Shown here one piece after another: positions 2,960 through 58,820 of a stretch of DNA of 64,000 nucleotides (position 1 is its first letter; each line of letters starts with the position of its first letter). The position numbers and the translations under genes are program-made. The DNA comes from an uncultured Pirellulaceae bacterium (GTDB lineage Bacteria; Planctomycetota; Planctomycetia; Pirellulales; Pirellulaceae). Below the pieces are notes generated by a model, which had not been told where the DNA came from, did not search any database, and saw only the letters and a program-made list of their open reading frames with translations. The stretch is from NCBI GenBank assembly GCA_964453205.1, contig CAYVRC010000005.1, positions 12,421 through 76,420 of the forward strand, given 5' to 3'.

Positions 2960-4272
2960 CACGCCATTTCCACGGGTGCGGTGACCTGAGCGAGCGTTGC
3001 CGGCAGAAGATTTCGGCTGTGTGACAGGATCGGATAAAACGTGCACGCCAACCACAGCAGCGTGCAAGGTCCGGGGAACGTTTCCAGGATCGTGTCTTCC
3101 ATCAAACAGCTGAGCAACAGGAACGTGGACAGACCGCTGATCAACCGGTGGGAGCTGAGCAGCGCCGTGGCGAGGTTCCAGATCAGCAACGTGATCATCA
3201 AAACGCCGGCCAACACACCGCCGGCCAACGAAGCGTGCAGCACCGCGTTGTGGGTCGCTTGCGAATGATTAATCAACAAGGTCGGTGCGGCGTTGAACCC
3301 GTGTCCGATGGTCGGACGCTCGCGAATCAAGTCGGCCGCGTAACTCCAGATCTCCGAACGCCCGGTGCCGCTGGTGATCTCCTCCAAGTCACCGCTCTTG
3401 GTGATCTTCGAAAGCACGGCTTCGACCAAACGTTCCTCTTGGCCGATCGCGAACAAACCTGCCACACCGATCAATCCCGCCAACCCTGTGGCGACCATGA
3501 CCGACGCGCCGAACCGGGTCGTCAGCCGATCGATGAACAGCACGCCGATCGCGATGACTCCCGAAAACAGCACGGTTCGGCTCCACGCCAAATAAGCCGC
3601 CAAAGCCAACGGAACGCAAATCGCGATCGTCTTTTTCGCATCGAACTTGCCGACGCGATACAAATAGAGACAAAGCAACAAACCGATCATCGCCGAGCGA
3701 CTGACGGCGTTGGGATGTCCCATTCCGCCCAGACGCTCAATGACGACGCCGCCGGGCAACTTTTCAGGAAAAACTCCGTACCGTGGCAGCCACAAATACA
3801 GCCCCCACGCTCCGACAGTGGTTGCCGCGACACCGAAAAGTGTGGCCGTCGCGATGCCCCGCACACCGAGTCCGGCCAGGGCGGTCGCCGCGAAACCGAC
3901 GTACGCGATGTTGATCAAAGTCGTCGGCAAGGAGCTGCCCGTCACGGCGGTCGGCGCGGCTAGCAACACAAGCGCCAAGATGCCGAGCACCAACATCGCC
4001 GGAACGGACTGCAAGACGTCCCGCACACGCCCGCAGCTGAGGACGCCCCACACCGCCAGCCCCGTCGCCATCCCGGACACGATCAATTTCATCATGACGT
4101 ACGGATCCAAACCGACGGTCATCAACGCCCCGTCGGCCGAGATATCCAGCGGTCCGAAGAAAACCGTCAAGGCCGTGGCCACCCACAAAACCCGTCGCAA
4201 CCCGCCCTCGGCGATGCCCGTCTCCAGTCGCGTCGGATCGGCGGGCGTAGGCTCGTTCAAGGACGACATCAT
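2959..4272 (-). CDS. O-antigen ligase/polymerase-like (Wzy_C-type) polytopic membrane protein
   Basis: The protein has at least 10 hydrophobic segments and a loop NHSQATHNAVLHASLAGGVLAGV resembling the O-antigen ligase domain. It is translationally coupled to the downstream glycosyltransferase. The start is uncertain. I prefer MMSSLNEPT (4272); the ORF track start at 4449 adds a basic, non-membrane leader. Confidence 0.6.
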   Translation of the reverse strand: MMSSLNEPTPADPTRLETGIAEGGLRRVLWVATALTVFFGPLDISADGALMTVGLDPYVMMKLIVSGMATGLAVWGVLSCGRVRDVLQSVPAMLVLGILALVLLAAPTAVTGSSLPTTLINIAYVGFAATALAGLGVRGIATATLFGVAATTVGAWGLYLWLPRYGVFPEKLPGGVVIERLGGMGHPNAVSRSAMIGLLLCLYLYRVGKFDAKKTIAICVPLALAAYLAWSRTVLFSGVIAIGVLFIDRLTTRFGASVMVATGLAGLIGVAGLFAIGQEERLVEAVLSKITKSGDLEEITSGTGRSEIWSYAADLIRERPTIGHGFNAAPTLLINHSQATHNAVLHASLAGGVLAGVLMITLLIWNLATALLSSHRLISGLSTFLLLSCLMEDTILETFPGPCTLLWLACTFYPILSHSRNLLPATLAQVTAPVEMA

Positions 4273-4577
4273 CGCGGACAAAACAATCGGTGACGGGTCA
4301 GAAAACGATCGCCGGAATGGCGAATCCACGAGGGGGAAGGCGAGACCGGCGTCCCGCGCGGGGGGCGGCAAGGCCGGGACAACAAGCGGCGACCAGGTGT
4401 CGCGTCCCTTGGAGGCCGTTCCACCCGGTCGCATTTTAATCCGCGACACCTCAAAAATCAGGCGGTCACGTCGACACGGCGAAAGGGAACCTTCCGCGTC
4501 GTCGCTGCGACCCCTAGAATCCGACCTTCGTGAACCATCCTTCCTTTCAATCGCCTTTGAAGACCTTCGCCAATTTT

Positions 4578-6943: not shown

Positions 6944-8443
6944 TCACTTGTCGGTTTCCGCGGGAACGTATTGCCGGGCGACTCGGCGACGAAACGCTTG
7001 ATCTCGGAAAGGATCATCGGTTCGGGCTTGCCAATCTTGAAGCGCCGACTTCAGTCGCGATTCCTCCGCGACGACCGACGGATCGCCGCTCAGGTTCATG
7101 CCTTCGTGCGGATCCGATTGTAAATCGTAGAACTCCCACTGCGGAGGATCCGACAACCGGGCGTAAAGAGCATGGGCGGGATGATCCTCGGGCAGCTTCG
7201 CTGATTCACGGCTGGACGGATCACCGTCGACCCGAACGATGGGCCGACCCACGCTGTCGCCGAGTCGGTGGATCAACTTGTAGCGACCGTCGGTGATCGC
7301 CCGCGTCGGATGAAACGAACTCGCACCATGAAAATGAAATTCACCGACCAGTGACGTTCGCCAAATCGACGTGTCGCCCGGCCTGATCGAATTGTCAGCT
7401 CGGGCGATCGGCCTGATGGATTTGCCTTGCACATTCTCGGGGATCGAGAGACCGACGGCATCAAACACGGTGGGAGCAATGTCCACCGCGCTGACCAATT
7501 TCTCGGAGACATGGGGCTCGGTGACCAAGGGCCAGTCGACCAAGAACGGGACTCGCAGACCGGCTTCGTAGCAGGTCGTCTTGCCGCGCGAGAACGGCGG
7601 ACCGTGATCTCCCAAAAAGATCACCAAGGTCCGATCACGCTGCCCGGTTTCTTCCAACGATCGCACCAACAGGCCCACGGCCGCATCGACACGCTGCACA
7701 CAGTTGTAATAGCCGGCGATCCGCTTTCGCATCACCGGCGTGTCCACGCCCTGCCATGGCCAAGCGTCGACATCCTCCGGCCCGATCGGTGACTCGGGGA
7801 TCCCATCGACCACGTCAGGAAACGCGGGCTGTCCCTCGGCCGCCCTGCCGTTCACGTGCGGGTCAAAAACGTTGAACATCAGGAACCACGGCTGGTCTCG
7901 GTCGATTCGCCAAAAGGATTCAGCGAAAGCAATCTGTTTGCGAATCTCGCGGGTGCCAAACCCCTGCTTTTGATGTTCGTCGAAAGCAAACTCGGATTCA
8001 GGATTGACGTGCAGTTTGCCGATCACACCGGTGCGATAGCCGGCTTGTTTCAGCCGATTGGGGATCGACTGCTCGATGATCTCCTGCTTCGCACGAAAAC
8101 CGACACCCGCATTGGCAAGTCCGTATTGACCGTTGGAATGCGGATACAATCCCGTCAACATGGCCGACCGTGACGAACTGCAAGACGCCTGGGCGACGTA
8201 GGCCGTCTGAAATCGCACGCTCCGGCTTGCCAACGCATCCAAATGAGGTGTCGGCACCGTCTTGTCGCCGTAGCAGTTCAACTGGATCCCGAGGTCATCG
8301 GACGTTATCAGCAAGACGTTCAACGGACTCTCGGCGACGCCGGACTGTGAAAGCCAAGCGACGGACAGCCACAAACCGACAACGAAACCGGGCAAGCCAG
8401 AACGATCCCGTCCACTTTTCGACGCACACGTCACTTTCATCAT
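6944..8443 (-). CDS. S1-family sulfatase (N-sulfoglucosamine sulfohydrolase-like) with non-canonical C-S-S-S-R active-site motif
   Basis: It has a signal peptide, then LLITSDDLG, QASCSSSRSAMLTGLYPHSNG, IGKLHV and FLGDHGPPF. The Cys codon is at 8182-8180 and the Arg codon at 8170-8168. Confidence 0.85.
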   Translation of the reverse strand: MMKVTCASKSGRDRSGLPGFVVGLWLSVAWLSQSGVAESPLNVLLITSDDLGIQLNCYGDKTVPTPHLDALASRSVRFQTAYVAQASCSSSRSAMLTGLYPHSNGQYGLANAGVGFRAKQEIIEQSIPNRLKQAGYRTGVIGKLHVNPESEFAFDEHQKQGFGTREIRKQIAFAESFWRIDRDQPWFLMFNVFDPHVNGRAAEGQPAFPDVVDGIPESPIGPEDVDAWPWQGVDTPVMRKRIAGYYNCVQRVDAAVGLLVRSLEETGQRDRTLVIFLGDHGPPFSRGKTTCYEAGLRVPFLVDWPLVTEPHVSEKLVSAVDIAPTVFDAVGLSIPENVQGKSIRPIARADNSIRPGDTSIWRTSLVGEFHFHGASSFHPTRAITDGRYKLIHRLGDSVGRPIVRVDGDPSSRESAKLPEDHPAHALYARLSDPPQWEFYDLQSDPHEGMNLSGDPSVVAEESRLKSALQDWQARTDDPFRDQAFRRRVARQYVPAETDK

Positions 8444-8494: not shown

Positions 8495-9469
8495 TCACGG
8501 AAGCTTGACTCGCGAGATCTGACCATTCTGTCCCGCGACGGCCACGGTGCCGTCGTGGGGATGGACGGCGACCGCGTAGGCCCAGTCTTCGATGCCGGGC
8601 AAGGTACCGGTCAGTTCCGCCGTGTCGGGATCGATCAAGCGAACCTTTCCGTCACGGCAACCCGCGACGATTCGCGATCCGTCCGTCGTCCATGCGATGC
8701 ACAAAGGGGTCGATTCCAATCTTGCGAAGCGGACGAGTCGGCCGATCGTCGGTTGCCAAAAGCGAATCGTGCGGTCCTCGCCGGCTGATGCGATCATCGG
8801 TAAACCCCCGACGTTCGGCCGCGTCGCCAAGGCGTGAACGGGTTGTGTGTGATTGTTCAAGCTGCGAAGCAGTTCGCCCGAAACGGAATTCCAGACTCGC
8901 AAGTTCTGGTCGATGCCGCCGCTGACCAAAATCTTGTCGTCGTTCAGATTGCAAAGCGAGGTGACGCCACGGGAATGACCGACCCAGGGATCGAAGGTTC
9001 CCTCGTTTCGCAAATCCCGACGCAACAGACTGTGATCCAGACTGGCCGAAACGAACGTATCCTTTTCAAGCCAAACGATGTCCGTGACCGTGTCGTCATG
9101 GCGGTCGGAACGATCGATCGAATCCCCGTCGGGCCAGGAAAAAATCTCGATGCCTCCAAAGTCCGCCGGAGAACCGCCGCCGACGGCCAAGCGATCGTGC
9201 GACGGCGAAAACGTCAGGCAGTGAATCGTCGGCAGCCTGACCGTCAAAGTTTTTTTCAACTGCCGCTGCGGCCAATCGAACACCCGCAGCCCCGCTTGCG
9301 AGCCCACCAACAACGAATCGCCGGTCGCATCGAACGCCATCGCGGTGACGGGCGGCCGGACCGCATCGGCCGTTTCCGCGATCACCCCCGACGGCCAAAC
9401 GGACAGCAAAAACACGAGCACCACAGACGGGTTGCCGACGATCCGCGGGTAGCGGCAAGACGAAATCAC
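8495..9469 (-). CDS. WD40/beta-propeller repeat protein, exported
   Basis: The N-terminus is hydrophobic (VVLVFLLSVWPSGVIA). WD-like blades include SGGIDQNLRVWN, SAGEDRTIRFWQ and AGCRDGKVRLID. The GTG start overlaps the stop of the upstream DUF1501 gene (GTGA, 9466-9469). Confidence 0.75.
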   Translation of the reverse strand: MISSCRYPRIVGNPSVVLVFLLSVWPSGVIAETADAVRPPVTAMAFDATGDSLLVGSQAGLRVFDWPQRQLKKTLTVRLPTIHCLTFSPSHDRLAVGGGSPADFGGIEIFSWPDGDSIDRSDRHDDTVTDIVWLEKDTFVSASLDHSLLRRDLRNEGTFDPWVGHSRGVTSLCNLNDDKILVSGGIDQNLRVWNSVSGELLRSLNNHTQPVHALATRPNVGGLPMIASAGEDRTIRFWQPTIGRLVRFARLESTPLCIAWTTDGSRIVAGCRDGKVRLIDPDTAELTGTLPGIEDWAYAVAVHPHDGTVAVAGQNGQISRVKLP

Positions 9470-10803
9470 GACGCGATCAACTCCGAGACCACGCGGGCGC
9501 CGTCGGGCGCGACTCGGACCGGCCGGCCGTCGTCGGTTCGCAGTTCGGTCGCCGGATCGATGCCCAGCAGCGTGTAAATCGTTGCGGCCAAATCCGCCGG
9601 CGTTACCGGTTTGTCCTTGGGAAGCTCGCCCTGGGAATCGCTGCTGCCGATGATCTGTCCGCCGGGAACGCCGCCGCCGGCCATCGCCACGCTGAAAACG
9701 TTGGGCCAGTGGTCACGACCCCCGCGCGAATTGATTTTCGGCGTCCGCCCGAACTCCCCCATCACGACGACCAACGTTTCGTCCAACATGCCGCGATCAT
9801 CCAGATCGCCGACCAAGGAAGCCAGGGCCCGATCCAAGGCCGGCACTTTGGCGTTGCGGTCATTCGCGAAACGAGTCTTCAGTTCGGCGATCTTTTCATG
9901 CGTGTCCCAGCCGGGATTGTGAACCGTCACGAACGGCACGCCGCGCTCGACCAAACGCCGGGCCAGCAAACAGCTTTGACCGATCGGATTGCCCATGTCG
10001 CGACCGTATCGCTGGCGTATCTTTTCGGGTTCCTCCGCAAGGTTGAAGGCTCGTTTCGCATCCGGTGAAGCGATCAAGTCGTAAGCGCGTTGCAGATCCG
10101 GATCGCTGACAGGTTCAGTCGAAGCGTCTTCTCGGCGAGCAAAACGATCAAACGTTTGAACCATCCTTTGACGGCGGCCCAATCGTTCCAAGTCCAGTCC
10201 TTGATAGAAGTCCAGATCGCGGACACGAAAGTCTGGATGGCTGGGATTGCCGCCGACGTTGAACGGGCTGGTCGACGAAGAAAGGAAACCGCTGCCGCTG
10301 ATGTTCCGCGTGAAGCCGGGGACGGCGACGTTCGGTGGCAGAACGCCGGACGAGGATCGCAAATCAGCCAAGGTCGCCCCGAACGTCGGGTAAGCCAGTG
10401 CCGGGGTCGGCTTGTAACCGGTCATCAAATAATGCGTGCCGAAGTTGTGTTCACCCAACGGGGACGTCATCGATCGCACGACGGCCAATCGGTCCATGAT
10501 CGCCGCGGTCTGCGGCAAGCACTCACCGATCCGCACGCCCGGCAGCTTGGTGGCGATGCTGGTCAAAGGCCCGCGGACCTCCTCGGGCGCGTCCGGCTTC
10601 GGATCAAACGTCTCCAAGTGACTCGGCCCGCCGTCCAACCAAATCAAAATGCATGACTTGGCTTTGGCGACGGGTCGATTCTCGGCCGCCGATAACCGCC
10701 GCAGCCGAAGGAGATCGCCCAAACCCAGCCCCATCGCCGTCAATCCGCCGATGCGAAGTCCGTCCCGCCGGGTGACACCGTCACATCGTTTCGCGTCTGT
10801 CAT
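9466..10803 (-). CDS. DUF1501 family protein (sulfatase-fold, Tat-type signal)
   Basis: The N-terminus is twin-arginine-like (TRRDGLRIGGLTAMGLGLG). CILIWLDGGPSHLETFDPKP and MGEFGRTPKINSRGGRDHW are typical DUF1501 blocks. Confidence 0.85.
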   Translation of the reverse strand: MTDAKRCDGVTRRDGLRIGGLTAMGLGLGDLLRLRRLSAAENRPVAKAKSCILIWLDGGPSHLETFDPKPDAPEEVRGPLTSIATKLPGVRIGECLPQTAAIMDRLAVVRSMTSPLGEHNFGTHYLMTGYKPTPALAYPTFGATLADLRSSSGVLPPNVAVPGFTRNISGSGFLSSSTSPFNVGGNPSHPDFRVRDLDFYQGLDLERLGRRQRMVQTFDRFARREDASTEPVSDPDLQRAYDLIASPDAKRAFNLAEEPEKIRQRYGRDMGNPIGQSCLLARRLVERGVPFVTVHNPGWDTHEKIAELKTRFANDRNAKVPALDRALASLVGDLDDRGMLDETLVVVMGEFGRTPKINSRGGRDHWPNVFSVAMAGGGVPGGQIIGSSDSQGELPKDKPVTPADLAATIYTLLGIDPATELRTDDGRPVRVAPDGARVVSELIAS

Positions 10804-49536: not shown

Positions 49537-50127
49537 ATGATTTCGCCCAAGTCTCCAGCTTCACCCACCCCCGAGCCCACTGGGCTCGGCGAGTCAGATG
49601 ACTTCGCGGGTGACGAGCTGCTGCAATCGTTCGAATCCCAGTTCCGCGTGTTGGCCAGCCGCATGCTGTCCGAATTCCCCGTGGTAAAACGCTGGGAGCA
49701 AACGGATGACATCATTCAAGCCTCGTTAATGAACGTGCATCGTCATCTGCGATCGGCGGAGATTCAGTCGGAGCTGCATCGACGGCGTCTTGCCGCCCGA
49801 GTGATCCGGCATCAGCTTTTGGATCTAGCCAGACATTACCGCAACAAGTCGTCGCATGCGGCCAATCACGAATCAACCGAAGGTCGCATTCCTCCAACTT
49901 CTTCGCCGGCCGAGACGCCAGGACTGCAAGAATGGGCGGAGTTCCATCAGCGCGTCGGTGAATTGCCGGCACGACTTCGTGATTCGTTCGAATTGATCTG
50001 GTACGGCGGACTGAGCCATGCGGAAACGGCATCGAATCTGGGGATCAGCCAGCGCCAATGCCAACGCCGCTGGCGTGAGGCGAAGATCGAGGTTGCCCGA
50101 GGACTCCGATACGATCTTCTGTTCTGA
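49537..50127 (+). CDS. ECF-type RNA polymerase sigma factor (Sigma70_ECF/kinase-associated class)
   Basis: The region-2-like segment is ASRMLSEFPVVKRWEQTDDIIQASLMNVHRHL. The region-4 HTH is LIWYGGLSHAETASNLGISQRQCQRRWREAKI. A Ser/Thr kinase gene starts 17 nt downstream. Confidence 0.8.
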   Translation: MISPKSPASPTPEPTGLGESDDFAGDELLQSFESQFRVLASRMLSEFPVVKRWEQTDDIIQASLMNVHRHLRSAEIQSELHRRRLAARVIRHQLLDLARHYRNKSSHAANHESTEGRIPPTSSPAETPGLQEWAEFHQRVGELPARLRDSFELIWYGGLSHAETASNLGISQRQCQRRWREAKIEVARGLRYDLLF

Positions 50128-50144
50128 CGCCTTGGGAACCCAAC

Positions 50145-53100
50145 ATGGCTGACTCGTCGAGTGACTCGCAGACGACCGAGGTCTCGCGCCTCGATCCGTC
50201 AATGCAAGAACGGGTTGAACAGCGCCTTGATCGTTGGGAGACACTGCAGGCCGCCGGGGTTGCGGCCACGCCCGAGGAACTTGCCGGCGACGACCAAGCG
50301 ATTGTGGAAACGCTTCGCGAGCGAATCGAGATGCTCAAGGCGTTTTCGCGTTTCGAGCAGCAATCGACGACAGCGCCGCCTTCGCAGGTCGACGGGTACC
50401 GGATCGTTCGCGAGATCGGCAAGGGCGCGAACTCCATCATTTATCTGGCCCAGCAGACCTTCCCCGGCCGCATGGTTGCTTTAAAGCTGCTCTGCAACGT
50501 TGCTGCACGCCCGAGGCTCGAACAAAGATTTCGGCTGGAGGCGGATGTGCTCGCGTCGCTGCAACACCCAAATATTGCGAGGATTTATGACGCCGGGATC
50601 GCCAACGTCTGGGGCGCTAAACGTCTTTACTTCACCATGGAGTGGATTGACGGGACGAACGTCCAACAGCATGTCACGGACAGGAAGACTCAGTCGCACG
50701 ACTGGACCCCAGAGGACACGGTTCGTCTGTGTCTTCACTTTGCTGACGCCTTGTCCGAGGCGCACTCGCTGGGAGCCGTCCATCGTGATTTGAAACCGGA
50801 CAACATGCTGGTGATGGCAGACGGGACCCCCAAGCTGATCGATTTCGGACTCGCTGCGGTTCGATCCGATTCCGACGTGGAGACTGGTGAATCGACCCAG
50901 GACGGTTTCGTCGGGACACGCTGTTACATGAGCCCGGAACAATTCAGCGGAAGCCCCGCGTCCATCGACACGCGGACCGACATCTACGGTTTCGGCGTCG
51001 TTTTGTACCAGCTATTAACCGATCGACTTCCCTACCCGATCGAAGACAAGACCGTTTGGGAAACAGCCGAAATCGTACGGCATCAGCCGCCGACTCCGAT
51101 CAGGCGTATCAACCGACGATGCTCGCATGACCTGGAGACGATTCTTCAGACATCCCTGAGGAAGGCACCTTCTGAGCGATATCAGTCGATGACTGAGTTT
51201 GCCGATGACTTGCGTCGGTATTTGCAGGGTCGCCCCATCCGGGCCAAGCGAATCCACATCGGGGCTGTGGTTGGGAAATGGTGCCGACGACACCGCACCG
51301 CCGCGTTGACTTCCGCGTTGGCGGTCACGGTCATGTTGGCGCTGTTGATGGCGACGCTTGTCGCCACGGCAAAAGTAGCTCGGCAATCGACCCGGCTGAC
51401 TCAGGCGAACCGGCAGCTTCAATCGCAGCAGCTTGAACTTGTCGGGGCCAATCAAGAACTGGAAACGACGGTTGATCGACTGACGCGCAAGGCGTTTAGC
51501 AAGTCATTGCTCCGGCTGTCTATGCTCGCGGACCAAGACCGCAAACACACTTACCAACAACTGTTGGATCAGCAACTTTTCCCCAACCAACTTCGATCGT
51601 TCGCCTGGAATATCCTGACGCAATCTGTTCGTCCGAACCGTATCGACTGGGTTGCTGACACGAAGGGCATCTACGACATCGCGATTTGTGATGATGGCGA
51701 TTGGTGCGCGACCAGCGGACCTTCTGCAATTCGAGTTTGGGACTGTACCACGCAAGAGCTTCTCGCCCAGTATCAAACCGACGACGTTGATCCCTCGGTT
51801 CCGCTTTCACTACTGGAAGATCCGCAGGCAGTCTGTTTTGTTTGTTTCGACGGCGGTGCCAGAAGGCTATCGGTCGATCAGGACGAAACCACCATGGTCA
51901 TTCCACCTTCGGCGCGTCGAATCACAGCGTTGTTCACCGCTTCCGCGCGAGATCTTTGCTTGACATTGGACCAGTCCGGTACGCTCGAGTGTCGAAATCT
52001 GTCGGAGAACCGACTACTGTGGAAAAGATTCATCTTGGAAAGCCAGGGCATCGCAATCCGCGCGGACGAACTCGGCCAGCGGTACGCCGCGGTATCGCGA
52101 AACGGCGAGATCGTGATCGGACTTGCCGAGTCAGGCGAGGTCACCAGTCGGCAGAACGCGAGGACGACCAAGGGAAGCACACCTCATTGGCGGCGAGCGC
52201 GGATTTCTCACGATCTCAATTCCGTGAGCCTCTGTCAGGAACGATCCAAGGCATTGGTTTGGGATGTGATTCGCAAGGAACCAAGACGATCTTTCGATCA
52301 CTTGGAGGCAGCGCCAGACATCGCCTTTGTGGAAGCGGGTGCGACGCGATCCGAACCGGCATACCTTGTTTCGGGACGCAACCGTATCGTCAAATGGTCG
52401 GGGACGTCCGAGGGCGCGATCGTCTACAGCGACAAGCCGGTAGCTGCTGGCGACAAGACGGACCAGTCGACGACAAACGGTGGGGCGATCCGAGCTGCAA
52501 CGCCTGTCGCCGTTGCGGTCGCAAGAGAACAAGATCGCGTCGCAATCGCCATGTCGGATGGCCGGTTGTTGATCGATTCCATTTACGGAAACCACCTGTT
52601 TCAACGATGGCCGACTGCCAGGTCGACGGTCGCCGGGCTGGCGCTGTCGACTGACGGCAAGCGACTGGCGGCTTACGCAGGTGGCGGCAGCATCAGCATT
52701 CACGACACGAGAAACGGCAAGATTCTTTGGGAGGCCAACGGCAATCGAAGACGGACGCATGACATTCATTTCGCCGGCAATGACCAATGGATCATTGCTC
52801 GACGCCACAAGCATCTCGTGTCGGCCTTTAACGCGGCGTCAGGCAACCTCGTGAGCGAGGTGATTGTTCCAAGCGCAAGCAGACGGATGTTGAAGGTCCG
52901 CGATCGATTTCTGCTGGGGATTGCGGCGGATCAATTAGCATTCCTAACCCTGAAGAGCGCATCCAAAGGCATCTCATTCGGACCTGTGCCTCATGGGATC
53001 AATGGCCCCATCCAAATAGCTCGCCAAGATTCGAATACCGGGCGCATCGCACTTTCCCACGATGACGGAATCGTCACCGTCGGGCAGATCACTCAGGGCG

Positions 53101-53525
53101 ATCGGTTTCAACTTCTCGCGGAGCAGTGGCTTGGTCATGTCCGCGCCATGACTTGGCTGCCTGGGCAGCACCGACTCGTCACAGGAGACCAGGATGGCTC
53201 AGTGGTTCTTTGGGGCACGCCCCCGCCGGACGCAGGCCCCCGAGGCGGTCGACGATCAATGGAGGAGATCAGTCGAACTCGCCCGAACAGTTATCCGGTC
53301 GGAAGCTTGGCCGTATCGCCCGATGGCACGACGATGGCCAGTGGCGCTTTCAATGGCGATGTCATTTTTTGGGACACGGTCACCATGGAGCCACAACTTG
53401 TCGTCTCCACCGAACTGATCCCAATCCGAGACATGGCGTTTTCGTCCGACGGAAGAACGTTGGTCATCGGTGGCAAAGGCGATCACATGGCCGTCTTTCG
53501 CACCTCGGACGCAGGTCGGCCGTAG
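50145..53525 (+). CDS. membrane Ser/Thr protein kinase with large C-terminal WD40-like beta-propeller region
   Basis: Hanks motifs are IGKGANSIIYLA, VALKLL, HRDLKPDNML, DFGLA and YMSPEQ. The TM is LTSALAVTVMLALLMATLVA, followed by a coiled coil and then ~620 aa with WD-like blades (TGDQDGSVVLWG, SGAFNGDVIFWD). Confidence 0.88.
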   Translation: MADSSSDSQTTEVSRLDPSMQERVEQRLDRWETLQAAGVAATPEELAGDDQAIVETLRERIEMLKAFSRFEQQSTTAPPSQVDGYRIVREIGKGANSIIYLAQQTFPGRMVALKLLCNVAARPRLEQRFRLEADVLASLQHPNIARIYDAGIANVWGAKRLYFTMEWIDGTNVQQHVTDRKTQSHDWTPEDTVRLCLHFADALSEAHSLGAVHRDLKPDNMLVMADGTPKLIDFGLAAVRSDSDVETGESTQDGFVGTRCYMSPEQFSGSPASIDTRTDIYGFGVVLYQLLTDRLPYPIEDKTVWETAEIVRHQPPTPIRRINRRCSHDLETILQTSLRKAPSERYQSMTEFADDLRRYLQGRPIRAKRIHIGAVVGKWCRRHRTAALTSALAVTVMLALLMATLVATAKVARQSTRLTQANRQLQSQQLELVGANQELETTVDRLTRKAFSKSLLRLSMLADQDRKHTYQQLLDQQLFPNQLRSFAWNILTQSVRPNRIDWVADTKGIYDIAICDDGDWCATSGPSAIRVWDCTTQELLAQYQTDDVDPSVPLSLLEDPQAVCFVCFDGGARRLSVDQDETTMVIPPSARRITALFTASARDLCLTLDQSGTLECRNLSENRLLWKRFILESQGIAIRADELGQRYAAVSRNGEIVIGLAESGEVTSRQNARTTKGSTPHWRRARISHDLNSVSLCQERSKALVWDVIRKEPRRSFDHLEAAPDIAFVEAGATRSEPAYLVSGRNRIVKWSGTSEGAIVYSDKPVAAGDKTDQSTTNGGAIRAATPVAVAVAREQDRVAIAMSDGRLLIDSIYGNHLFQRWPTARSTVAGLALSTDGKRLAAYAGGGSISIHDTRNGKILWEANGNRRRTHDIHFAGNDQWIIARRHKHLVSAFNAASGNLVSEVIVPSASRRMLKVRDRFLLGIAADQLAFLTLKSASKGISFGPVPHGINGPIQIARQDSNTGRIALSHDDGIVTVGQITQGDRFQLLAEQWLGHVRAMTWLPGQHRLVTGDQDGSVVLWGTPPPDAGPRGGRRSMEEISRTRPNSYPVGSLAVSPDGTTMASGAFNGDVIFWDTVTMEPQLVVSTELIPIRDMAFSSDGRTLVIGGKGDHMAVFRTSDAGRP

Positions 53526-54542: not shown

Positions 54543-57500
54543 ATGCAATCTCTAGACATTTTTAATCGCTTCATCCTTCGTCGCGTTGAAAGTAGTCCGA
54601 TTCGGCGTAGAAAGTCCGTGAGACTTGAGGCTCTTGAAGACCGCACGCTCATGTCCGCCGATTTAAGACTGGCACAACCGTTTGAGTTAGACTTGGCGGA
54701 ATCAAGCCAGTACTCGGTGCCTGGTGATCTGAGATTCGCCGAATTAGACGATCGATTCCTCTTTGTAGGCGACAACGGCCTTACCGGCAGCGAGCTTTGG
54801 AGTTCTGATGGAACTGAGGCTGGAACGAGCCTAGTCAGAGAGATCTATCCCGGCAGTCAGGGTGCGAACCCGGGGATGCTAAAAGTTTTGGGTGACGAAG
54901 TCTTCTTTTTTGCAAACGACCCAGATCACGGAATAGAGCTTTGGAAAAGCGATGGCACAGAGGGTGGCACACAAATCGTTGCGGACAAGTTCTCTCAGCC
55001 GCGTCTGTTTGAAAGCACAGTGCAAGGGACGTCCTCCAACAAAACACTAGTTGAAGCAAATGGAAGGTTGTTTTTCCCTCATCTCGATCCAGAGTTTGAA
55101 CAAGTTCTGTATGTCTCCGACGGAACATCTGACGGAACACGGATCTTTATGACCTTTTTCGATGAAGATGGCTTCAGGATCATCGACAATGATGGTGTTG
55201 AGAACCTAACCGAAGCCGATGATATCTTCTATTTTTCAGCTAGATTGCGGGGCGACTATCACGTCTACCGATCAGATGGAACCGTTGACGGAACATTTCC
55301 TATTGCTGCACCATTTGAGTTCGAGCCGAAAGACTTCAAGACGAAAAACAACCGAGTTTCGTTCGCTGTTAACGGTAGCGTTTGGGCCAGCAATGGTCAG
55401 TTGCGAGACGCCTATCAGGTGCACGCAGCAGAACGAGGTGGAAGGGTTGGTTTTTTTACTTCTCGTGTCTTACATCATCCATTCCAAGACGGAGTCATGG
55501 TTTTTGAGGTCCTTCAAACGCCGAGCGGTCGCGTTGGACGCATAGGAATTCACGGTGGTCTGCCGAGCGATCTAACTGAGTATTTCGCCGGTGGCGACAG
55601 CGCAACTTTCAATGAGAGATTGTTCGTAGAAATCGAGCAAGAACTGTTTTTTTATCAGGAAGGTCCAAGTGAGGCGCGTGGTCTTTGGAAGACAGATGGC
55701 ACTTCAGAGGGAACCGTTATGATGTCAACGCTCGTCCCAGAACTTCCAACATCAGTAATAACCACCTCGTATTTCGCCAAATCAGCACGTCTGTTTTTTT
55801 CCACAGGCCGGCAATGGTGGTCAACCGATGGAACACCTAGCGGTACCTACATTGAGGAATGGCTTGATTTCTTGAACGATGTAGAAGTGCGCAAGGATGG
55901 CTTTAGGGCAAATGGGGATGTCGTTTTTCAATCGTTTCCTGAAGACGGCCCGACAACGCTTCAAATGCTGAACTTCCAGCAGGAGAGCCCCACGCTCTTG
56001 CAAAGTGATGGCGAACGCTCCGTGGTATCTGCGTTGGCGTCTGTGGAGATTCTGGACTCGCTCGAATACTTGAGTGCCACTGCGGGTGACACTTGGTACT
56101 TTAGGGACGGGCAAGGTTTGTCAGCTTTCAGTGAACGACTAGGTTTGCGTCCAATCGAAGGTGTTGATGGCTTCCGTCGTCTCGCAGTTGTTGGCGATGA
56201 TTTATACCTATCTTCACTTTTTAGGGGTGTCACCACGTTGCAGGTCGTCCGCCAGGATTCGCCAAACGCATTGCGAGTGACGACAAACGGATTCACGGGA
56301 CGATTCAGTTTCTTGGGAAGCCTAAACGGTGACGTACTGTTTTCTGCTAACGACGAGGAGGGGATTGAGAGGTTGTGGAAGTCTGACGGTACGGCCGACG
56401 GAACTTTGGCCTTAGACATACCGGTGCCAATTCGTCACACGATTGAGTTCAGGGGAGCCTTGTACTTTGCGGCTCCTTCGTCGCAGGCAAGTGGTTGGTC
56501 TCTTTATCGATCTGACGGAACTCTCGATGGCACAGTGGAACTGGCAGAAATGGGTTTCTCAACGCCGGACGTTTTCGTCGTCAAGGGCGGGGAATTGTAT
56601 GCTCTAAGCACTTTCACAGCCTGGAAGACTGACGGAACTCGCTCAGGAACCAGATATATTGCGGATATCGTTGCGAGTGAGTTTGCTTCGACCGGGCAAG
56701 CACTTTTTGCGGCTGCATCTCCCATAACTTCGCTCTTGCTAATTGATCAATCTGGTGTACCTGAGGTGGTGCTGAAAGCGTACCCCGGCAAGGAGGGAAT
56801 TCGTCAGCTAACTCACTTTAACGACAGGGTTATTTTTTCTGCTGATGATGGGATAAACGGTGCAGAGCTCTGGGTGAGTGACGGCACAAGCGAGGGTACT
56901 TTTATGGTGAAAGACATCGCGCCGGGGGCCTCAGGATCTTATCCACGCGACTTTACAGTACATGATGGACGAGTGTACTTTCAAGCGGATGATCGTGAGC
57001 ATGGATTTGAGCTTTGGAGTACTGACGGAACAGAAGTTGGCACAGTGCTTGTTCGTGATTTCACAAACGACAGTTTTAGCAGCCACCCACGAACATTCAC
57101 CCTTGATGGCCAGTTGCTTTCGATCGCATCGACATTCGAAACTGGTCGTCGGCTATATTTCACCGATTCGATTTCGACAGAACCAGGGATCGCGAACGTT
57201 GTGGTCGCAAACGGTGAGTCGGGACGATCGAATGTATCATCATGGGCCGTCGCCTTCGACCAACCTGTCGACTACCACGGTCAGAGCATTTCCGACGCAA
57301 TATCGGTCGTCTTACAGCCTGTCCGAGTTCCATCCGGCAGCACGCGTGAAGTCGATTTTCGAGACGAGCTCTTCTCTTTAGAAGTCGACACTGAGACTGG
57401 AAACTCTTGGCTGGTCTTCGATAGTGGATCTCAAAAGATTCCAGACGGCACTTTTCGGGTCAAGATCTCAACCACAAACCTGCGTAACTCCGCGAGCGTA

Positions 57501-58163
57501 GCGGTGGACGGAGACGGCGACGGGCTGGCTGGTGGTGATTTTGAGTTTGAGTTCCACAGCTTGGCTGGTGACGTCGATGGTAACGGCGTGGTTGGCCCAA
57601 GCGATATGCTTGTTGTTGCCCAATCTTTAGGGACAACCCCAGCTTCAGCAAAGTGGAATGCGAACGCTGATGTCGATCTCGACGGCCGGATCTCAGTGCG
57701 AGACAGGGTGTATGTCGCTCGACGGCTTGGTGAGGCAGTTGTCCCTTTTGACGGCGATATCTTAACAAGCGATCCTCTCACGCGGTTTGATGTGACAGAT
57801 GACGGTGACGTTTCAGCTCAAGATGCTCTCACAGTAATAAATTATTTAGCCCGTGCAGTCTCAGAACCAATGAGGGAAGTTGGAGACACTAGTTCATTCG
57901 CTCAGGAAAGGTTGGACGTGTCAAAAGATGGGAAAGTGACCGCGCTCGACGCGCTGCAGGTCATCAACCAACTGAACCGTCTTTCCGCGGTCACCGTTCC
58001 GTATGAGGGCGAGGGGATCGACCCTGACGAACCGAGCTTCGACGCGGCGAGTTCCCTGCCTGGCATAGCAACACCAACATGGATCATGGATGACGAAGAT
58101 GAAGTACTGGAGGAAACAATCGACACATTAGCCCTTGATCTTGTCGAGCACAGAAACTTTTAA
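54543..58163 (+). CDS. ELWxxDGT-repeat protein (beta-propeller-like) with two C-terminal dockerin-type modules
   Basis: The N-terminus contains RLEALEDRTLMSA. There are at least 11 repeats (ELWSSDGTEAGT, ELWKSDGTEGGT, LYVSDGTSDGT, VYRSDGTVDGT, LWKTDGTSEGT, WWSTDGTPSGT, LWKSDGTADGT, LYRSDGTLDGT, AWKTDGTRSGT, ELWVSDGTSEGT, ELWSTDGTEVGT). Dockerin-like loops at nt 57564-57983 are DVDGNGVVGPSDMLVVAQSLG, DVDLDGRISVRDRVYVARRLG, DVTDDGDVSAQDALTVINYLAR and DVSKDGKVTALDALQVINQLNR. Confidence 0.85.
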   Translation: MQSLDIFNRFILRRVESSPIRRRKSVRLEALEDRTLMSADLRLAQPFELDLAESSQYSVPGDLRFAELDDRFLFVGDNGLTGSELWSSDGTEAGTSLVREIYPGSQGANPGMLKVLGDEVFFFANDPDHGIELWKSDGTEGGTQIVADKFSQPRLFESTVQGTSSNKTLVEANGRLFFPHLDPEFEQVLYVSDGTSDGTRIFMTFFDEDGFRIIDNDGVENLTEADDIFYFSARLRGDYHVYRSDGTVDGTFPIAAPFEFEPKDFKTKNNRVSFAVNGSVWASNGQLRDAYQVHAAERGGRVGFFTSRVLHHPFQDGVMVFEVLQTPSGRVGRIGIHGGLPSDLTEYFAGGDSATFNERLFVEIEQELFFYQEGPSEARGLWKTDGTSEGTVMMSTLVPELPTSVITTSYFAKSARLFFSTGRQWWSTDGTPSGTYIEEWLDFLNDVEVRKDGFRANGDVVFQSFPEDGPTTLQMLNFQQESPTLLQSDGERSVVSALASVEILDSLEYLSATAGDTWYFRDGQGLSAFSERLGLRPIEGVDGFRRLAVVGDDLYLSSLFRGVTTLQVVRQDSPNALRVTTNGFTGRFSFLGSLNGDVLFSANDEEGIERLWKSDGTADGTLALDIPVPIRHTIEFRGALYFAAPSSQASGWSLYRSDGTLDGTVELAEMGFSTPDVFVVKGGELYALSTFTAWKTDGTRSGTRYIADIVASEFASTGQALFAAASPITSLLLIDQSGVPEVVLKAYPGKEGIRQLTHFNDRVIFSADDGINGAELWVSDGTSEGTFMVKDIAPGASGSYPRDFTVHDGRVYFQADDREHGFELWSTDGTEVGTVLVRDFTNDSFSSHPRTFTLDGQLLSIASTFETGRRLYFTDSISTEPGIANVVVANGESGRSNVSSWAVAFDQPVDYHGQSISDAISVVLQPVRVPSGSTREVDFRDELFSLEVDTETGNSWLVFDSGSQKIPDGTFRVKISTTNLRNSASVAVDGDGDGLAGGDFEFEFHSLAGDVDGNGVVGPSDMLVVAQSLGTTPASAKWNANADVDLDGRISVRDRVYVARRLGEAVVPFDGDILTSDPLTRFDVTDDGDVSAQDALTVINYLARAVSEPMREVGDTSSFAQERLDVSKDGKVTALDALQVINQLNRLSAVTVPYEGEGIDPDEPSFDAASSLPGIATPTWIMDDEDEVLEETIDTLALDLVEHRNF

Positions 58164-58196
58164 GTCCACAGAAAAGGTCTAGACGGAACCACTCTC

Positions 58197-58820
58197 ATGA
58201 GATTGATCTTCATCATTGCAGTTCTGACGTTTGTTGGTCGCTCGTCCTGTAGCGCTGCCGCTGTTCGCATCGTCGATGCACCAGAGACAATCATCCCCGG
58301 CCAAACGTTTTCATTTGATGTCGTTGTCCCGGCGATGACGGCGCTTTCGGCATATCAGATCGACATCCTTCTCGCCGGCAGTACTGGTTCTGCCGGAATC
58401 GACTTTCAATTTGGGCCTGCGGAAGCGGTCGCACCGGCAGATGGCTATGTTTTCGCGTCAACGGATTTCTTTGCTCCTGCGATCAACAACGTTTCGACGG
58501 CCGTGCAGCGTCTGACACTGTCGGATATCGATCTGGTCGGTCGCAACACCATAACGGGCGTCAATGACCAGATCGCTCGCGTCAGTGTCCTGACGTCCGA
58601 CTCCTACGATGGCAGCCTGCAATTTTCGATTGACCCCGCGACGTTGATTCTGGATGGCCCACAGTTCACCCCGACCTCGGTTCCCGAGTTTGCGAGCATT
58701 CAAGCGGACACACTCAATCAGCCGTCCATCACGATCACGGCCGTCCCCGAACCGGCCGCGTTCACTCTGCTAGCAGGACTCACCGTATGTTTCCGAAGCG
58801 TCCGGAAGAAGAAGGCATAA
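58197..58820 (+). CDS. PEP-CTERM-anchored secreted protein with cohesin-like beta-sandwich domain
   Basis: The signal peptide is MRLIFIIAVLTFVGRSSCSA. The domain begins AVRIVDAPETIIPGQTFSFDVVVPAMTALSAYQIDILL. The C-terminus VPEPAAFTLLAGLTVCFRSVRKKKA has the PEP motif, a TM helix and a basic tail. The PEP-CTERM call is strong; the cohesin call is by resemblance only. Confidence 0.75.
   Translation: MRLIFIIAVLTFVGRSSCSAAAVRIVDAPETIIPGQTFSFDVVVPAMTALSAYQIDILLAGSTGSAGIDFQFGPAEAVAPADGYVFASTDFFAPAINNVSTAVQRLTLSDIDLVGRNTITGVNDQIARVSVLTSDSYDGSLQFSIDPATLILDGPQFTPTSVPEFASIQADTLNQPSITITAVPEPAAFTLLAGLTVCFRSVRKKKA

Follow-up and report, generated by a model that had tools for sequence, protein, structure and literature searches.

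A small planctomycete protein of 207 aa without annotation, encoded directly behind a dockerin-bearing giant of 1206 aa, is probably a previously unrecognised surface anchor for dockerin giants, a conclusion which follows from its predicted cohesin fold, its PEP-CTERM tail and its near-constant place after such a giant, and for which no binding data exist. Domain content, predicted fold, family-wide sorting signal and conserved gene pairing are observations. That the two genes form a cognate cohesin-dockerin pair of anchor and cargo is the favoured reading, held with moderate confidence only, and within it the contact, its Ca dependence, the exosortase processing and the extracellular location are inferred. 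Surface tethering by cohesin and dockerin had been proposed in the first-pass annotation and this interpretation is supported in every part open to a test, with binding, an exosortase of the genome and surface exposure still resting on inference.

Both open reading frames lie in the window, i.e., the whole analysed stretch of 64,000 nucleotides, and their originally reported coordinates and spacing were reproduced exactly. The features of the locus are as follows:

54543..58163, + strand: 1206-aa cargo protein with LEPR-XLL-like N-terminus, ELWxxDGT body, X-like module, two dockerins and acidic tail
54621..54665, + strand: LEPR-XLL-like motif, aa 27-41, RLEALEDRTLMSA (NF012209)
54792..57044, + strand: ELWxxDGT body with 12 copies of the motif, clustered at aa 84-437 and at aa 610-836 (HMM and motif)
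57264..57563, + strand: X-like module, beta-rich and conserved, ending DGDGDG..GG.FEFEFHSLAGD, directly 5' of the dockerins
57564..57752, + strand: dockerin module 1, Ca loops at aa 1010 (DVDGNG) and 1043 (DVDLDG) (Pfam Dockerin_1)
57786..57986, + strand: dockerin module 2, Ca loops at aa 1083 (DVTDDG) and 1125 (DVSKDG) (Pfam Dockerin_1)
57993..58160, + strand: acidic C-terminal tail with conserved motif TLxxLAxD (alignment, charge count)
58164..58196, + strand: intergenic spacer, 33 nt (sequence)
58197..58820, + strand: 207-aa cohesin-like PEP-CTERM protein, candidate anchor (ORF, homologue family, AF2 model, cohesin fold matches)
58197..58259, + strand: signal peptide, aa 1-21, MRLIFIIAVLTFVGRSSCSAA (read from sequence)
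58260..58739, + strand: cohesin-like beta-sandwich, aa 22-181, strongly acidic, net charge -13 (AF2, Foldseek)
58740..58817, + strand: PEP-CTERM-type signal, aa 182-207, with AVPEP, helix AAFTLLAGLTVCF and RSVRKKKA

The two genes are probably co-transcribed. The gap between the genes of homologous pairs ranges from -4 to 59 nt in six of seven measured cases and amounts to 235 nt in the other, and no terminator was predicted in the 33-nt spacer by a scan which as a whole performed at chance level. The identical 1206-aa protein is present on metagenome and NCBI contigs.

The small protein belongs to a family of about 150 clusters (151 cluster representatives), as revealed by an exhaustive HMMER search. 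Its AF2 model, built with 113 homologs, attained a pLDDT of 92.5 (89-98 across the domain) and a pTM of 0.83. A Foldseek comparison of this model with the PDB returned exclusively cohesins of type I, type II and non-cellulosomal origin at ranks 1-34, with the best E value for 6kgd_A (1.5e-6) and a TM score of 0.67 for 5nrk_A. The better matches reached TM scores of 0.51-0.67 normalised to the target; TM values of 0.5-0.67 together with an rmsd of 4-6 Å show that the folds are alike without being close. The initial impression that the opening of the domain reads like cohesin strands is thus supported by the predicted structure, but has no backing from sequence profiles. Pfam Cohesin did not match the 207-aa protein at E<=1 and gave only one match across 113 members, at the noise level (E 0.079), and the family profile found no cohesin among PDB sequences; none of the Pfam, NCBIfam and PDB-sequence profiles identifies the protein as a cohesin. 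Without recognition by any sequence profile, it is not established whether the protein is homologous to cohesins or has merely converged on a common beta-sandwich.

The absence of a cohesin signal at the sequence level, the recurrent nature of beta-sandwich folds and the occurrence of the CLIPPER stalk domain and the Als3 adhesin further down the list of matches (ranks 35 and 47) would all be compatible with a cohesin-like PEP-CTERM surface protein that does not bind dockerins. The small protein and the giants would then be neighbours as co-regulated or co-exported parts of the envelope, and the dockerins would merely aid folding or stability with the help of Ca, or bind something else. Nevertheless, this explanation is regarded as unlikely: the 34 top ranks are no mix of sandwich families, and a cohesin fold beside a dockerin represents the one known partnership of both modules.

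The presumed ligand is well defined. Pfam Dockerin_1 recognises two stretches of the 1206-aa protein (E 3.5e-24; score 85 bits, cut-off 22.9), the best of them being module 2 (aa 1082-1145, profile positions 2-57 of 57), in which each Ca loop is followed by a DALxVINxL helix. Module 1 has an Arg-rich second helix (RISVRDRVYVARR), and the profile of its region matches 2y3n_B (E 4.4e-9), a dockerin crystallised in complex with a type II cohesin. The two tandem dockerins with four units of Ca loop and helix were located at nt 57570-57986, essentially the earlier assignment of 57564-57983. The loop pattern D-x-[DN]-x-D-G postulated for all four units does not hold throughout: the first two loops alone conform to D-x-[DN]-x-[DN]-G, and loops 3 and 4 carry T and S at position 3. 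Both residues are permitted at this position in EF-hand-type loops.

The ELWxxDGT body of the giant is recognised by NCBIfam TIGR04534 (E 2.2e-99, 10 separately significant stretches), and the loose motif [WYF]x[STA][DN]G[TSQ] occurs 12 times, 11 times in clean and once in degenerate form, which bears out the original count of at least 11 repeats. At the N-terminus, annotated before as LExLExR-type, the sequence LEALEDRTLM does resemble LEPR-XLL, but its 11.3 bits fall below the NF012209 cut-off of 17. The protein lacks a classical hydrophobic signal peptide, and the export route of LEPR-XLL-type proteins is unknown, which is to be noted as a point against the proposal.

The tethering proposal would have been refuted if the two genes were never syntenic elsewhere, which is not the case. 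In the window and in eight relatives with a readable upstream gene (P0123, P0124, P0125, P0126, P0127, P0128, P0133, and P0271), the same-strand gene directly upstream ends in Dockerin_1 (9/9). Likewise, an in-house dockerin HMM matched eight ORFs in 192 kb of DNA, two of them absent from its building set, and every one was the upstream neighbour (rough hypergeometric P ~1e-11 for dockerin placement, without correction for locus relatedness). The nine paired loci are mutually related, with about 32-53% identity, and therefore do not represent nine independent events. The bodies of the upstream proteins comprise ELWxxDGT in the window, Big_13/CARDB/Big_5 (L009, L011), CARDB/DUF7619 (L013), a matrixin-like segment (L014) and DUF7619 after an RHS protein (P0271), and the dockerin cassette is the only feature common to them. 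The constant element on the partner side is the C-terminal dockerin cassette rather than the ELWxxDGT propeller protein, whose body is only one among several interchangeable cargos. For the non-binding explanation, the sharing of this cassette alone and the lack of other dockerins in the 192 kb are further difficulties, whereas the existence of family members without a dockerin neighbour in the available sequence (P0249, P0278, and P0157) is in its favor. The latter demonstrate that the pairing is not universal; only P0249 is cleanly informative, since the contigs of P0278 and P0157 are truncated.

The cassette also raises the question of which of its parts would be bound. The X-like module, for which a Pfam scan found no matching family, can be aligned to the C-terminal ends of five partners that have unrelated bodies, and the acidic tail (net charge -12 across the last 45 aa in the 1206-aa protein) contains L289, A290, and D292 as invariant positions of the C-terminal alignment. 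Both are conserved among the partners like the dockerins, so that the small protein might bind the C-terminus of the giant via the X-like module or the LAxD tail, or require X-like module and dockerin together. The X-module is known to form part of the interface in type II anchoring complexes, examples of which (4u3s, 4wkz) occur among the fold matches. Still, such a contact is judged improbable. Tails (-6 to -13) and cohesin-like domains (-12 to -16) are both strongly acidic, which argues against their direct contact, and the dockerins retained in the more distant pairs L015 and L016 are of a different subtype and lack the same tail. For docking via the dockerins, the preferred reading, the only conserved Arg-rich helix, that of module 1, offers a counterpart to the acidic domain; this electrostatic support is weak.

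The ends of the small protein resemble those of an exported and sorted protein. Its signal peptide, as annotated previously, is readable in the sequence, and the AF2 model places a helix of low pLDDT at aa 3-12; a hydrophobic N-terminus is present in 106 of 115 full-length members. The C-terminus, originally described as a textbook PEP-CTERM signal, possesses VPEP, a hydrophobic stretch and RSVRKKK, but PF07589 (aa 182-205) yields 16.3 bits against the Pfam cut-off of 20.7, and the score also remains under the curated NCBIfam cut-off. Homologs do pass: PF07589 matches 67 and TIGR02595 36 of 113 members, and eight of ten members scanned singly exceed the curated TIGR02595 cut-off. The NCBIfam PEP-CTERM family models match the family only sub-threshold, and in most of these ten members in the tail alone. 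A [VI]PEP-like tail is found in 93 of 115 full-length members, with P[ATV]P in place of PEP in 17. Judged by this conservation, a PEP-CTERM tail characterises the family of the small protein.

The sub-threshold score, the P[ATV]P variants, the absence of an exosortase from the 64-kb window and the unknown passage of LEPR-XLL-type giants through the planctomycete envelope leave room for a periplasmic docking or hand-over factor in the export of the giant, with its C-terminal helix uncleaved in the cytoplasmic membrane; the small protein would then be an accessory of secretion without surface display, and not an anchor. This possibility is even more improbable than binding by the X-like module or tail, considering that most homologs tested pass the curated cut-off and that P184 does not vary among 113 members, with at least 90% conservation of P186 and of the basic cluster, including R200, as expected of a processed sorting signal and not of a plain TM anchor. 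Pirellulaceae are known carriers of PEP-CTERM/EpsH systems, and R. baltica encodes the EpsH homolog RB2461 along with 12 PEP-CTERM proteins (PMC1569441).

According to the proposed anchor-and-cargo mechanism, the 207-aa protein would be exported via its signal peptide and, in its mature form, consist of just one beta-sandwich of a highly divergent cohesin type. The region of VPEP, TM helix and basic tail is the expected substrate of an exosortase, whose cleavage would result in fixation to the cell envelope or an exopolysaccharide layer. At least one dockerin of the giant would bind the cohesin-like domain in a Ca-dependent manner, and with the dockerin docked on the anchored domain the secreted giant would be retained at the cell surface and not be lost by diffusion.

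A close analogy is offered by ScaE of Ruminococcus flavefaciens, a sortase-anchored single-cohesin scaffoldin (cohesin and LPXTG). Both proteins are small, with one cohesin-type module placed between a signal peptide and a C-terminal sorting signal for a dedicated transpeptidase-type enzyme, and the role would be the same, i.e., tethering of a dockerin-bearing partner to the surface. They differ in the sorting route (PEP-CTERM, exosortase and diderm envelope vs. LPXTG, sortase and peptidoglycan), in the divergence of the cohesin, which is too high for Pfam in the planctomycete protein, and in the partner, a giant adhesin-like or enzyme-like protein instead of a cellulosomal scaffoldin, without any sign of polysaccharide degradation. 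In Clostridium thermocellum, SdbA, OlpA, and OlpC likewise fuse one or few cohesins to an envelope anchor, and all three turn up in the fold matches, OlpA and OlpC through their cohesin complexes (3ul4, 4dh2) and SdbA through its cohesin (2bm3), with a sequence identity to the present family of only 8-16%. The X-like module directly before the dockerin is reminiscent of X-Doc in the type I and type II (X-)dockerin complexes of this species, whereas its anchor is non-covalent SLH binding to a Gram-positive wall and the tandem double dockerin is absent. Cohesin-dockerin use outside cellulose degradation is shared with the non-cellulosomal modules reportedly treated by Peer and colleagues in 2009; the fold matches include such cohesins from C. 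perfringens (2jh2, like 2w1n a toxin-complex cohesin) and Archaeoglobus fulgidus (2xdh).

Within the Planctomycetes, a hypothetical dockerin-based surface complex, the planctosome, was suggested for freshwater representatives, with Pfam-recognisable cohesins in large multidomain proteins and a proposed lamin-tail-domain anchor (Andrei et al. 2019, PMC6461901). The present candidate is, in contrast, a stand-alone, Pfam-invisible cohesin of 200 aa with a PEP-CTERM tail, encoded immediately after its presumed ligand. With the floc protein PepA and other substrates of the PEP-CTERM/exosortase system (Haft et al. 2006, PMC1569441) it has in common the signal peptide, a modest extracellular domain and a C-terminus of PEP, TM and Arg/Lys. 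In the literature searched, no PEP-CTERM protein was assigned the role of a cohesin or of a receptor for the dockerin of a second protein, and no paper reported this arrangement of a cohesin-like PEP-CTERM protein and a dockerin giant or combined the terms PEP-CTERM and cohesin, which agrees with the earlier view that the system is undescribed. The dockerin cassette and the anchor gene may be regarded as a portable two-gene unit, joined to varied adhesin-like or enzyme-like bodies, and its anchor would represent, in a phylum of Gram-negative type, a counterpart of the sortase-anchored ScaE.

Two co-directional reading frames separated by 33 nt form the gene pair considered here. Their positions agree exactly with those proposed in the first-pass annotation, whose observations on the sequence are confirmed with small corrections.

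54543-58163, plus strand: giant protein of 1206 aa with ELWxxDGT repeats and C-terminal dockerin modules
58197-58820, plus strand: small protein of 207 aa with a hydrophobic N-terminal signal, a predicted cohesin-like domain and a PEP-CTERM-type tail

The explanation which we favor with moderate confidence is that an exosortase-anchored protein of the cohesin type captures the dockerin of the giant encoded upstream. The small protein would be exported, its PEP-CTERM tail would be processed by an exosortase so that the protein becomes fixed to the envelope or matrix, and its single cohesin-type domain would bind the dockerin of the giant, which would thereby be held on the cell. Binding, its calcium dependence, processing and surface exposure are all inferred.

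The large reading frame is an ELWxxDGT repeat protein according to the NCBIfam model TIGR04534 (325 bits against a cut-off of 65, E 2.2e-99, 10 stretches), and 12 motif instances were counted with a loose pattern, in accordance with the at least 11 repeats originally noticed. More than 7,400 homologs exist, and their C-terminal appendages vary. The N-terminus had been described as of the LExLExR type; its LEALEDRTLM segment loosely resembles LEPR-XLL, but the match to the respective profile (NF012209, aa 27-41) reaches only 11.3 of the 17 bits needed. At the C-terminus, two complete Dockerin_1 modules were found (Pfam PF00404, E 3.5e-24, 85.2 bits against a gathering threshold of 22.9), lying in two stretches, the best of which covers profile positions 2-57 of 57. 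The criterion of a duplicated F-hand, which requires two 12-residue calcium loops per module with a helix behind each, is fulfilled: module 1 has its loops at aa 1010 and 1043, module 2 at aa 1083 and 1125, and an amphipathic helix follows all four, with calcium binding being inferred. The four loop-helix units initially proposed thus hold, but not the D or N at loop position 3, which is T in the third and S in the fourth loop. Module 1 could be aligned over both repeats with 2y3n_B, a dockerin crystallized on its cohesin (E 4.4e-9).

The proposal that the small protein carries a cohesin-like domain is supported by its predicted fold and not by sequence profiles. The Pfam model Cohesin (PF00963) did not match the 207-aa protein at E<=1, and a single match among 113 aligned family members (E 0.079) is regarded as noise. 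Likewise, the family profile retrieved no cohesin from the PDB sequences at E<=10, and searches of these sequences with the protein (phmmer) or the family (hmmsearch) returned noise only, i.e., beta-2-microglobulin, Fab light chains and complement C3. No conserved stretch of 7-10 columns is present in either of two alignments of the family. Structure prediction by AF2 was based on the alignment of 113 sequences, as input of one or two sequences resulted in an unusable model (pLDDT 38.8), and yielded a pLDDT of 92.5 and a pTM of 0.83. In the model, the region of aa 24-182 holds about 10 strands and fulfills the criterion of a nine-stranded, flattened beta-sandwich of the jelly-roll type, the topology not having been compared strand by strand. 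In a Foldseek search against the PDB, ranks 1-34 were occupied exclusively by cohesins (E 1.5e-6 to 1.4e-3, target-normalized TM up to 0.67, sequence identity 8-16%), which bears out the fold guessed from the sequence. These matches comprise CohA2 of C. acetobutylicum (E 1.5e-6), Coh6 of A. cellulolyticus ScaB (TM 0.67), type II cohesins and non-cellulosomal cohesins of C. perfringens and A. fulgidus. The first non-cohesin, at rank 35, is the isopeptide domain of CLIPPER (9ifr), a stalk domain of fibrillar adhesins; it was rejected as the fold with 34 cohesins ranking above it. Homology to cohesins, as against convergence, is not proven.

The yield of relatives depended on the search: a word-indexed search found one, the same search with the family profile 21, and exhaustive HMMER 151 cluster representatives. 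Most members measure 200-230 aa, of which about 150 aa form a domain lying between a signal peptide and a PEP-type tail. The body of the family is covered by no Pfam or NCBIfam model, and all sources name the small protein hypothetical or, at best, PEP-CTERM sorting domain-containing protein. The possibility that the PEP-CTERM family NF038129 already covers it was rejected, as ten members scanned stayed far below its 65-bit cut-off and matched mostly by the tail alone. Two homologs, P0149 and P0124, gave weak, nearly full-length alignments (22-25 bits) to this model, which is of similar size (194 positions), and NF038129 may be a distant relative with the same fold in other lineages. In the homolog P0148 (944 aa), residues 790-940 form a cohesin-like domain at the C-terminal end of a large protein that has a canonical LEPR-XLL-type N-terminus as well as He_PIG and PKD domains; thus, the domain also occurs within bigger surface proteins. 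A 730-aa PATR-repeat protein just downstream of one related pair (L014:8825-11137, minus strand) matched the family HMM weakly (E 8e-6), probably via its own PEP-CTERM tail.

Concerning the tail, the 207-aa protein ends in AVPEP-AAFTLLAGLTVCF-RSVRKKKA, i.e., a PEP motif, a hydrophobic helix and a terminal basic cluster. The textbook sorting signal initially read from this layout stands as a motif and as a trait of the family, but the protein itself scores only 16.3 of the 20.7 bits required by PF07589 and is not matched by TIGR02595. As the TIGR02595 cut-off (16 bits) was exceeded by eight of ten family members scanned individually, the sorting signal is considered a true family trait despite the sub-threshold member at hand. 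Furthermore, PF07589 matched 67 of the 113 aligned members (E<=0.1). Over these 113 homologs, position P184 never varies, and at least 90% conservation is reached at both P186 and R200. Among 115 full-length members, 93 tails are of the PEP and 17 of the P[ATV]P type. No exosortase of the EpsH/Xrt family is encoded within the 64-kb window, the polytopic reading frames of which belong to GntP, OPT, Wzy_C and MotA/ExbB. The Wzy_C protein (2962-4449, minus strand; seven transmembrane helices, O-antigen ligase type) is not an exosortase, and no other envelope-polymer gene was noticed in the window. In R. baltica, 12 PEP-CTERM proteins occur together with the EpsH homolog RB2461 (PMC1569441), and an exosortase in the source lineage is accordingly supported at the level of the lineage only. 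The absence of an exosortase gene from the window leaves room for the small protein being a periplasmic export accessory that is retained in the membrane by its hydrophobic tail; with the conserved sorting signal on the other side, we regard this as very improbable, and a surface anchor remains the preferred reading.

The genomic context was examined for twelve family members. In the window and all its closer relatives (nine of nine; homologs P0123, P0124, P0125, P0126, P0127, P0128, P0133, and P0271), the immediately preceding gene is co-directional and its product ends in Dockerin_1, which satisfies the demand that the pair be syntenic in other genomes. Of seven intergenic gaps measured, six lie between -4 and 59 nt and one amounts to 235 nt. 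The definition of an anchoring pair, a cohesin-like carrier with an envelope-anchoring signal and a dockerin partner in the same genome, is thus fulfilled. The upstream proteins differ in length (547 to 4,430 aa) and have unrelated bodies, and the closest six have in common a cassette at the C-terminus, which extends over about 250 aa and is composed of an X-like module, two dockerins and an acidic tail.

Upstream dockerin proteins: position of the shared cassette (alignment of partner C-termini) and type of body
Window: cassette 57264-58160; ELWxxDGT body
Locus L009: cassette 9105-10001; Big_13/CARDB/Big_5 body
Locus L011: cassette 7073-7969; Big_13/CARDB/Big_5 body
Locus L013: cassette 7042-7938; CARDB/DUF7619 body
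Locus L014: cassette 7054-7950; body with matrixin-like segment
Locus L012: cassette 2-547
Locus of P0271: DUF7619 body after an RHS protein

The giant at L014, the partner of P0127, contains a matrixin/reprolysin-like segment just before the cassette (L014:6451-6870, Peptidase_M10 E 2e-7), from which it follows that some cargos look enzyme-like rather than adhesin-like. The fetched DNA amounts to 192 kb without redundancy, and a dockerin HMM derived from the cassette alignment matched eight reading frames therein. Each of the eight immediately precedes a family gene, and two had not been part of the training set; a rough hypergeometric P for this pairing is about 1e-11, with the loci being phylogenetically related. 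Support for cohesin-dockerin binding is indirect only and inferred from this conserved adjacency. A rival reading is a PEP-CTERM protein of cohesin shape that only shares its regulation with the giants. A gene for an ECF sigma factor and, directly behind it, one for a Ser/Thr kinase of 1126 aa with WD40-like repeats (49537-53525) precede the giant/anchor pair by about 1 kb, an ECF sigma and kinase pair is also found near the pair at L014, and a regulatory link is possible. A scan of the window for sigma-70 promoters and terminators remained at chance level and was uninformative. With a cohesin fold on one side and dockerins on partners of unrelated body on the other, mere co-regulation appears unlikely, yet it is the most serious competitor of direct capture.

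The cassette itself bears on how such a capture might take place. Its X-like module is rich in beta structure and precedes dockerin 1, the second helix of which reads RISVRDRVxVAR; dockerin 2 is characterized by DVNxDGxVTALDALQVINxLAR, and the acidic tail features an invariant LAxD. The net charge of the cohesin-like domains is uniformly -12 to -16, and the only conserved Arg-rich helix lies in dockerin 1; the combination is compatible with direct contact, which is weak evidence. As the X-like module and the tail, neither of which matches any Pfam family, are conserved as well, the contact could be made by one of these instead of the dockerin helices, but we deem this improbable and retain the dockerins as the presumed ligand. 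A more distant pair (L015:4469-5968) has another dockerin subtype, with DGxVSGxDFLAWQRGFG repeats, and no LAxD tail, and the partner at L016 possesses a divergent dockerin with a weak score (27 bits). Dockerin type may vary in step with the clade to which the cohesin-like protein belongs.

Regarding the origin of the pair, GC3 falls to 0.495 in the large reading frame, is intermediate in the small one (0.625) and ranges from 0.65 to 0.76 in the flanking genes, with no dip of comparable size at related loci. A cargo gene or body that was acquired or exchanged recently would be consistent with this pattern. The dip affects the third codon positions of the large reading frame, no tRNA was found in the window and no integrase gene nearby, and it is left open whether it marks a mobile island. 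PSD/PSCyt domains elsewhere in the window identify the genome as that of a planctomycete. At L016, two genes of the Phage_integrase family lie immediately downstream of the pair (L016:6638-9531), hinting that it can sit on or beside mobile DNA.

A dockerin neighbor was not seen for P0249, P0278, and P0157, of which only P0249 is cleanly informative due to the truncated contigs of the other two. P0249 (L005:8860-9474) and P0278 (L007:10001-10597) belong to the subgroup with P[ATV]P tails, which includes P0279 of Gemmata sp.; these two were the members examined, and neither showed an adjoining dockerin gene. This subgroup may be functionally different or act in trans. A wider and rather speculative idea, which we would sooner doubt than accept at present, is that the family of about 200 aa represents the long-missing receptor of planctomycete 'orphan' dockerins, an exosortase-anchored cohesin for general surface display of giants in a diderm phylum. 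The X-dockerin-dockerin-tail cassette and the anchor gene would then move as a unit grafted onto unrelated adhesin or enzyme bodies, and unpaired members would be anchors shared by dockerin proteins whose genes lie elsewhere in the genome.

Anchoring by cohesin and dockerin is as such well established, and modules outside cellulosomes are known from across life. The proposed pair follows the same logic as anchoring scaffoldins such as the sortase-anchored ScaE and the SLH-anchored SdbA, OlpA, and OlpC, but differs in belonging to a diderm phylum and in holding adhesin-like or enzyme-like giants instead of cellulases. Planctomycetes, like many other non-cellulolytic microbes, commonly possess dockerin modules, the partners and purpose of which are largely unknown. 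Reviews continue to describe these modules as lacking a known function beyond the cellulosome (PMC5244752, citing Peer et al., 2009). For Planctomycetes, a 'planctosome' with Pfam-recognizable cohesins in large proteins and a lamin-tail-domain anchor was hypothesized (PMC6461901), and the protease-like cargo at L014 recalls this peptidase-based idea. In the literature searched, no paper contained both 'PEP-CTERM' and 'cohesin', and dockerin and exosortase occurred together in one paper only, as separate topics. The family is best described as divergent stand-alone proteins of predicted cohesin fold that bear an exosortase-type anchor and whose genes are coupled to a portable dockerin cassette.

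The pair occurs in the cultured Pirellulaceae Rubripirellula tenax Poly51 (Poly51_44750), Roseiconus lacunae and Stieleria sp. JC731, which makes the hypothesis directly testable. A cohesin-fold protein without a profile match implies that Pfam-based censuses undercount cohesins, homology being unproven. If the anchoring hypothesis is true, a concrete candidate receptor for planctomycete dockerins would be at hand, and the poorly understood PEP-CTERM/exosortase pathway would gain a defined job, namely the anchoring of a receptor for another protein. Moreover, it would show how planctomycetes may retain adhesin-like proteins of 1,000-4,400 aa on their surface.
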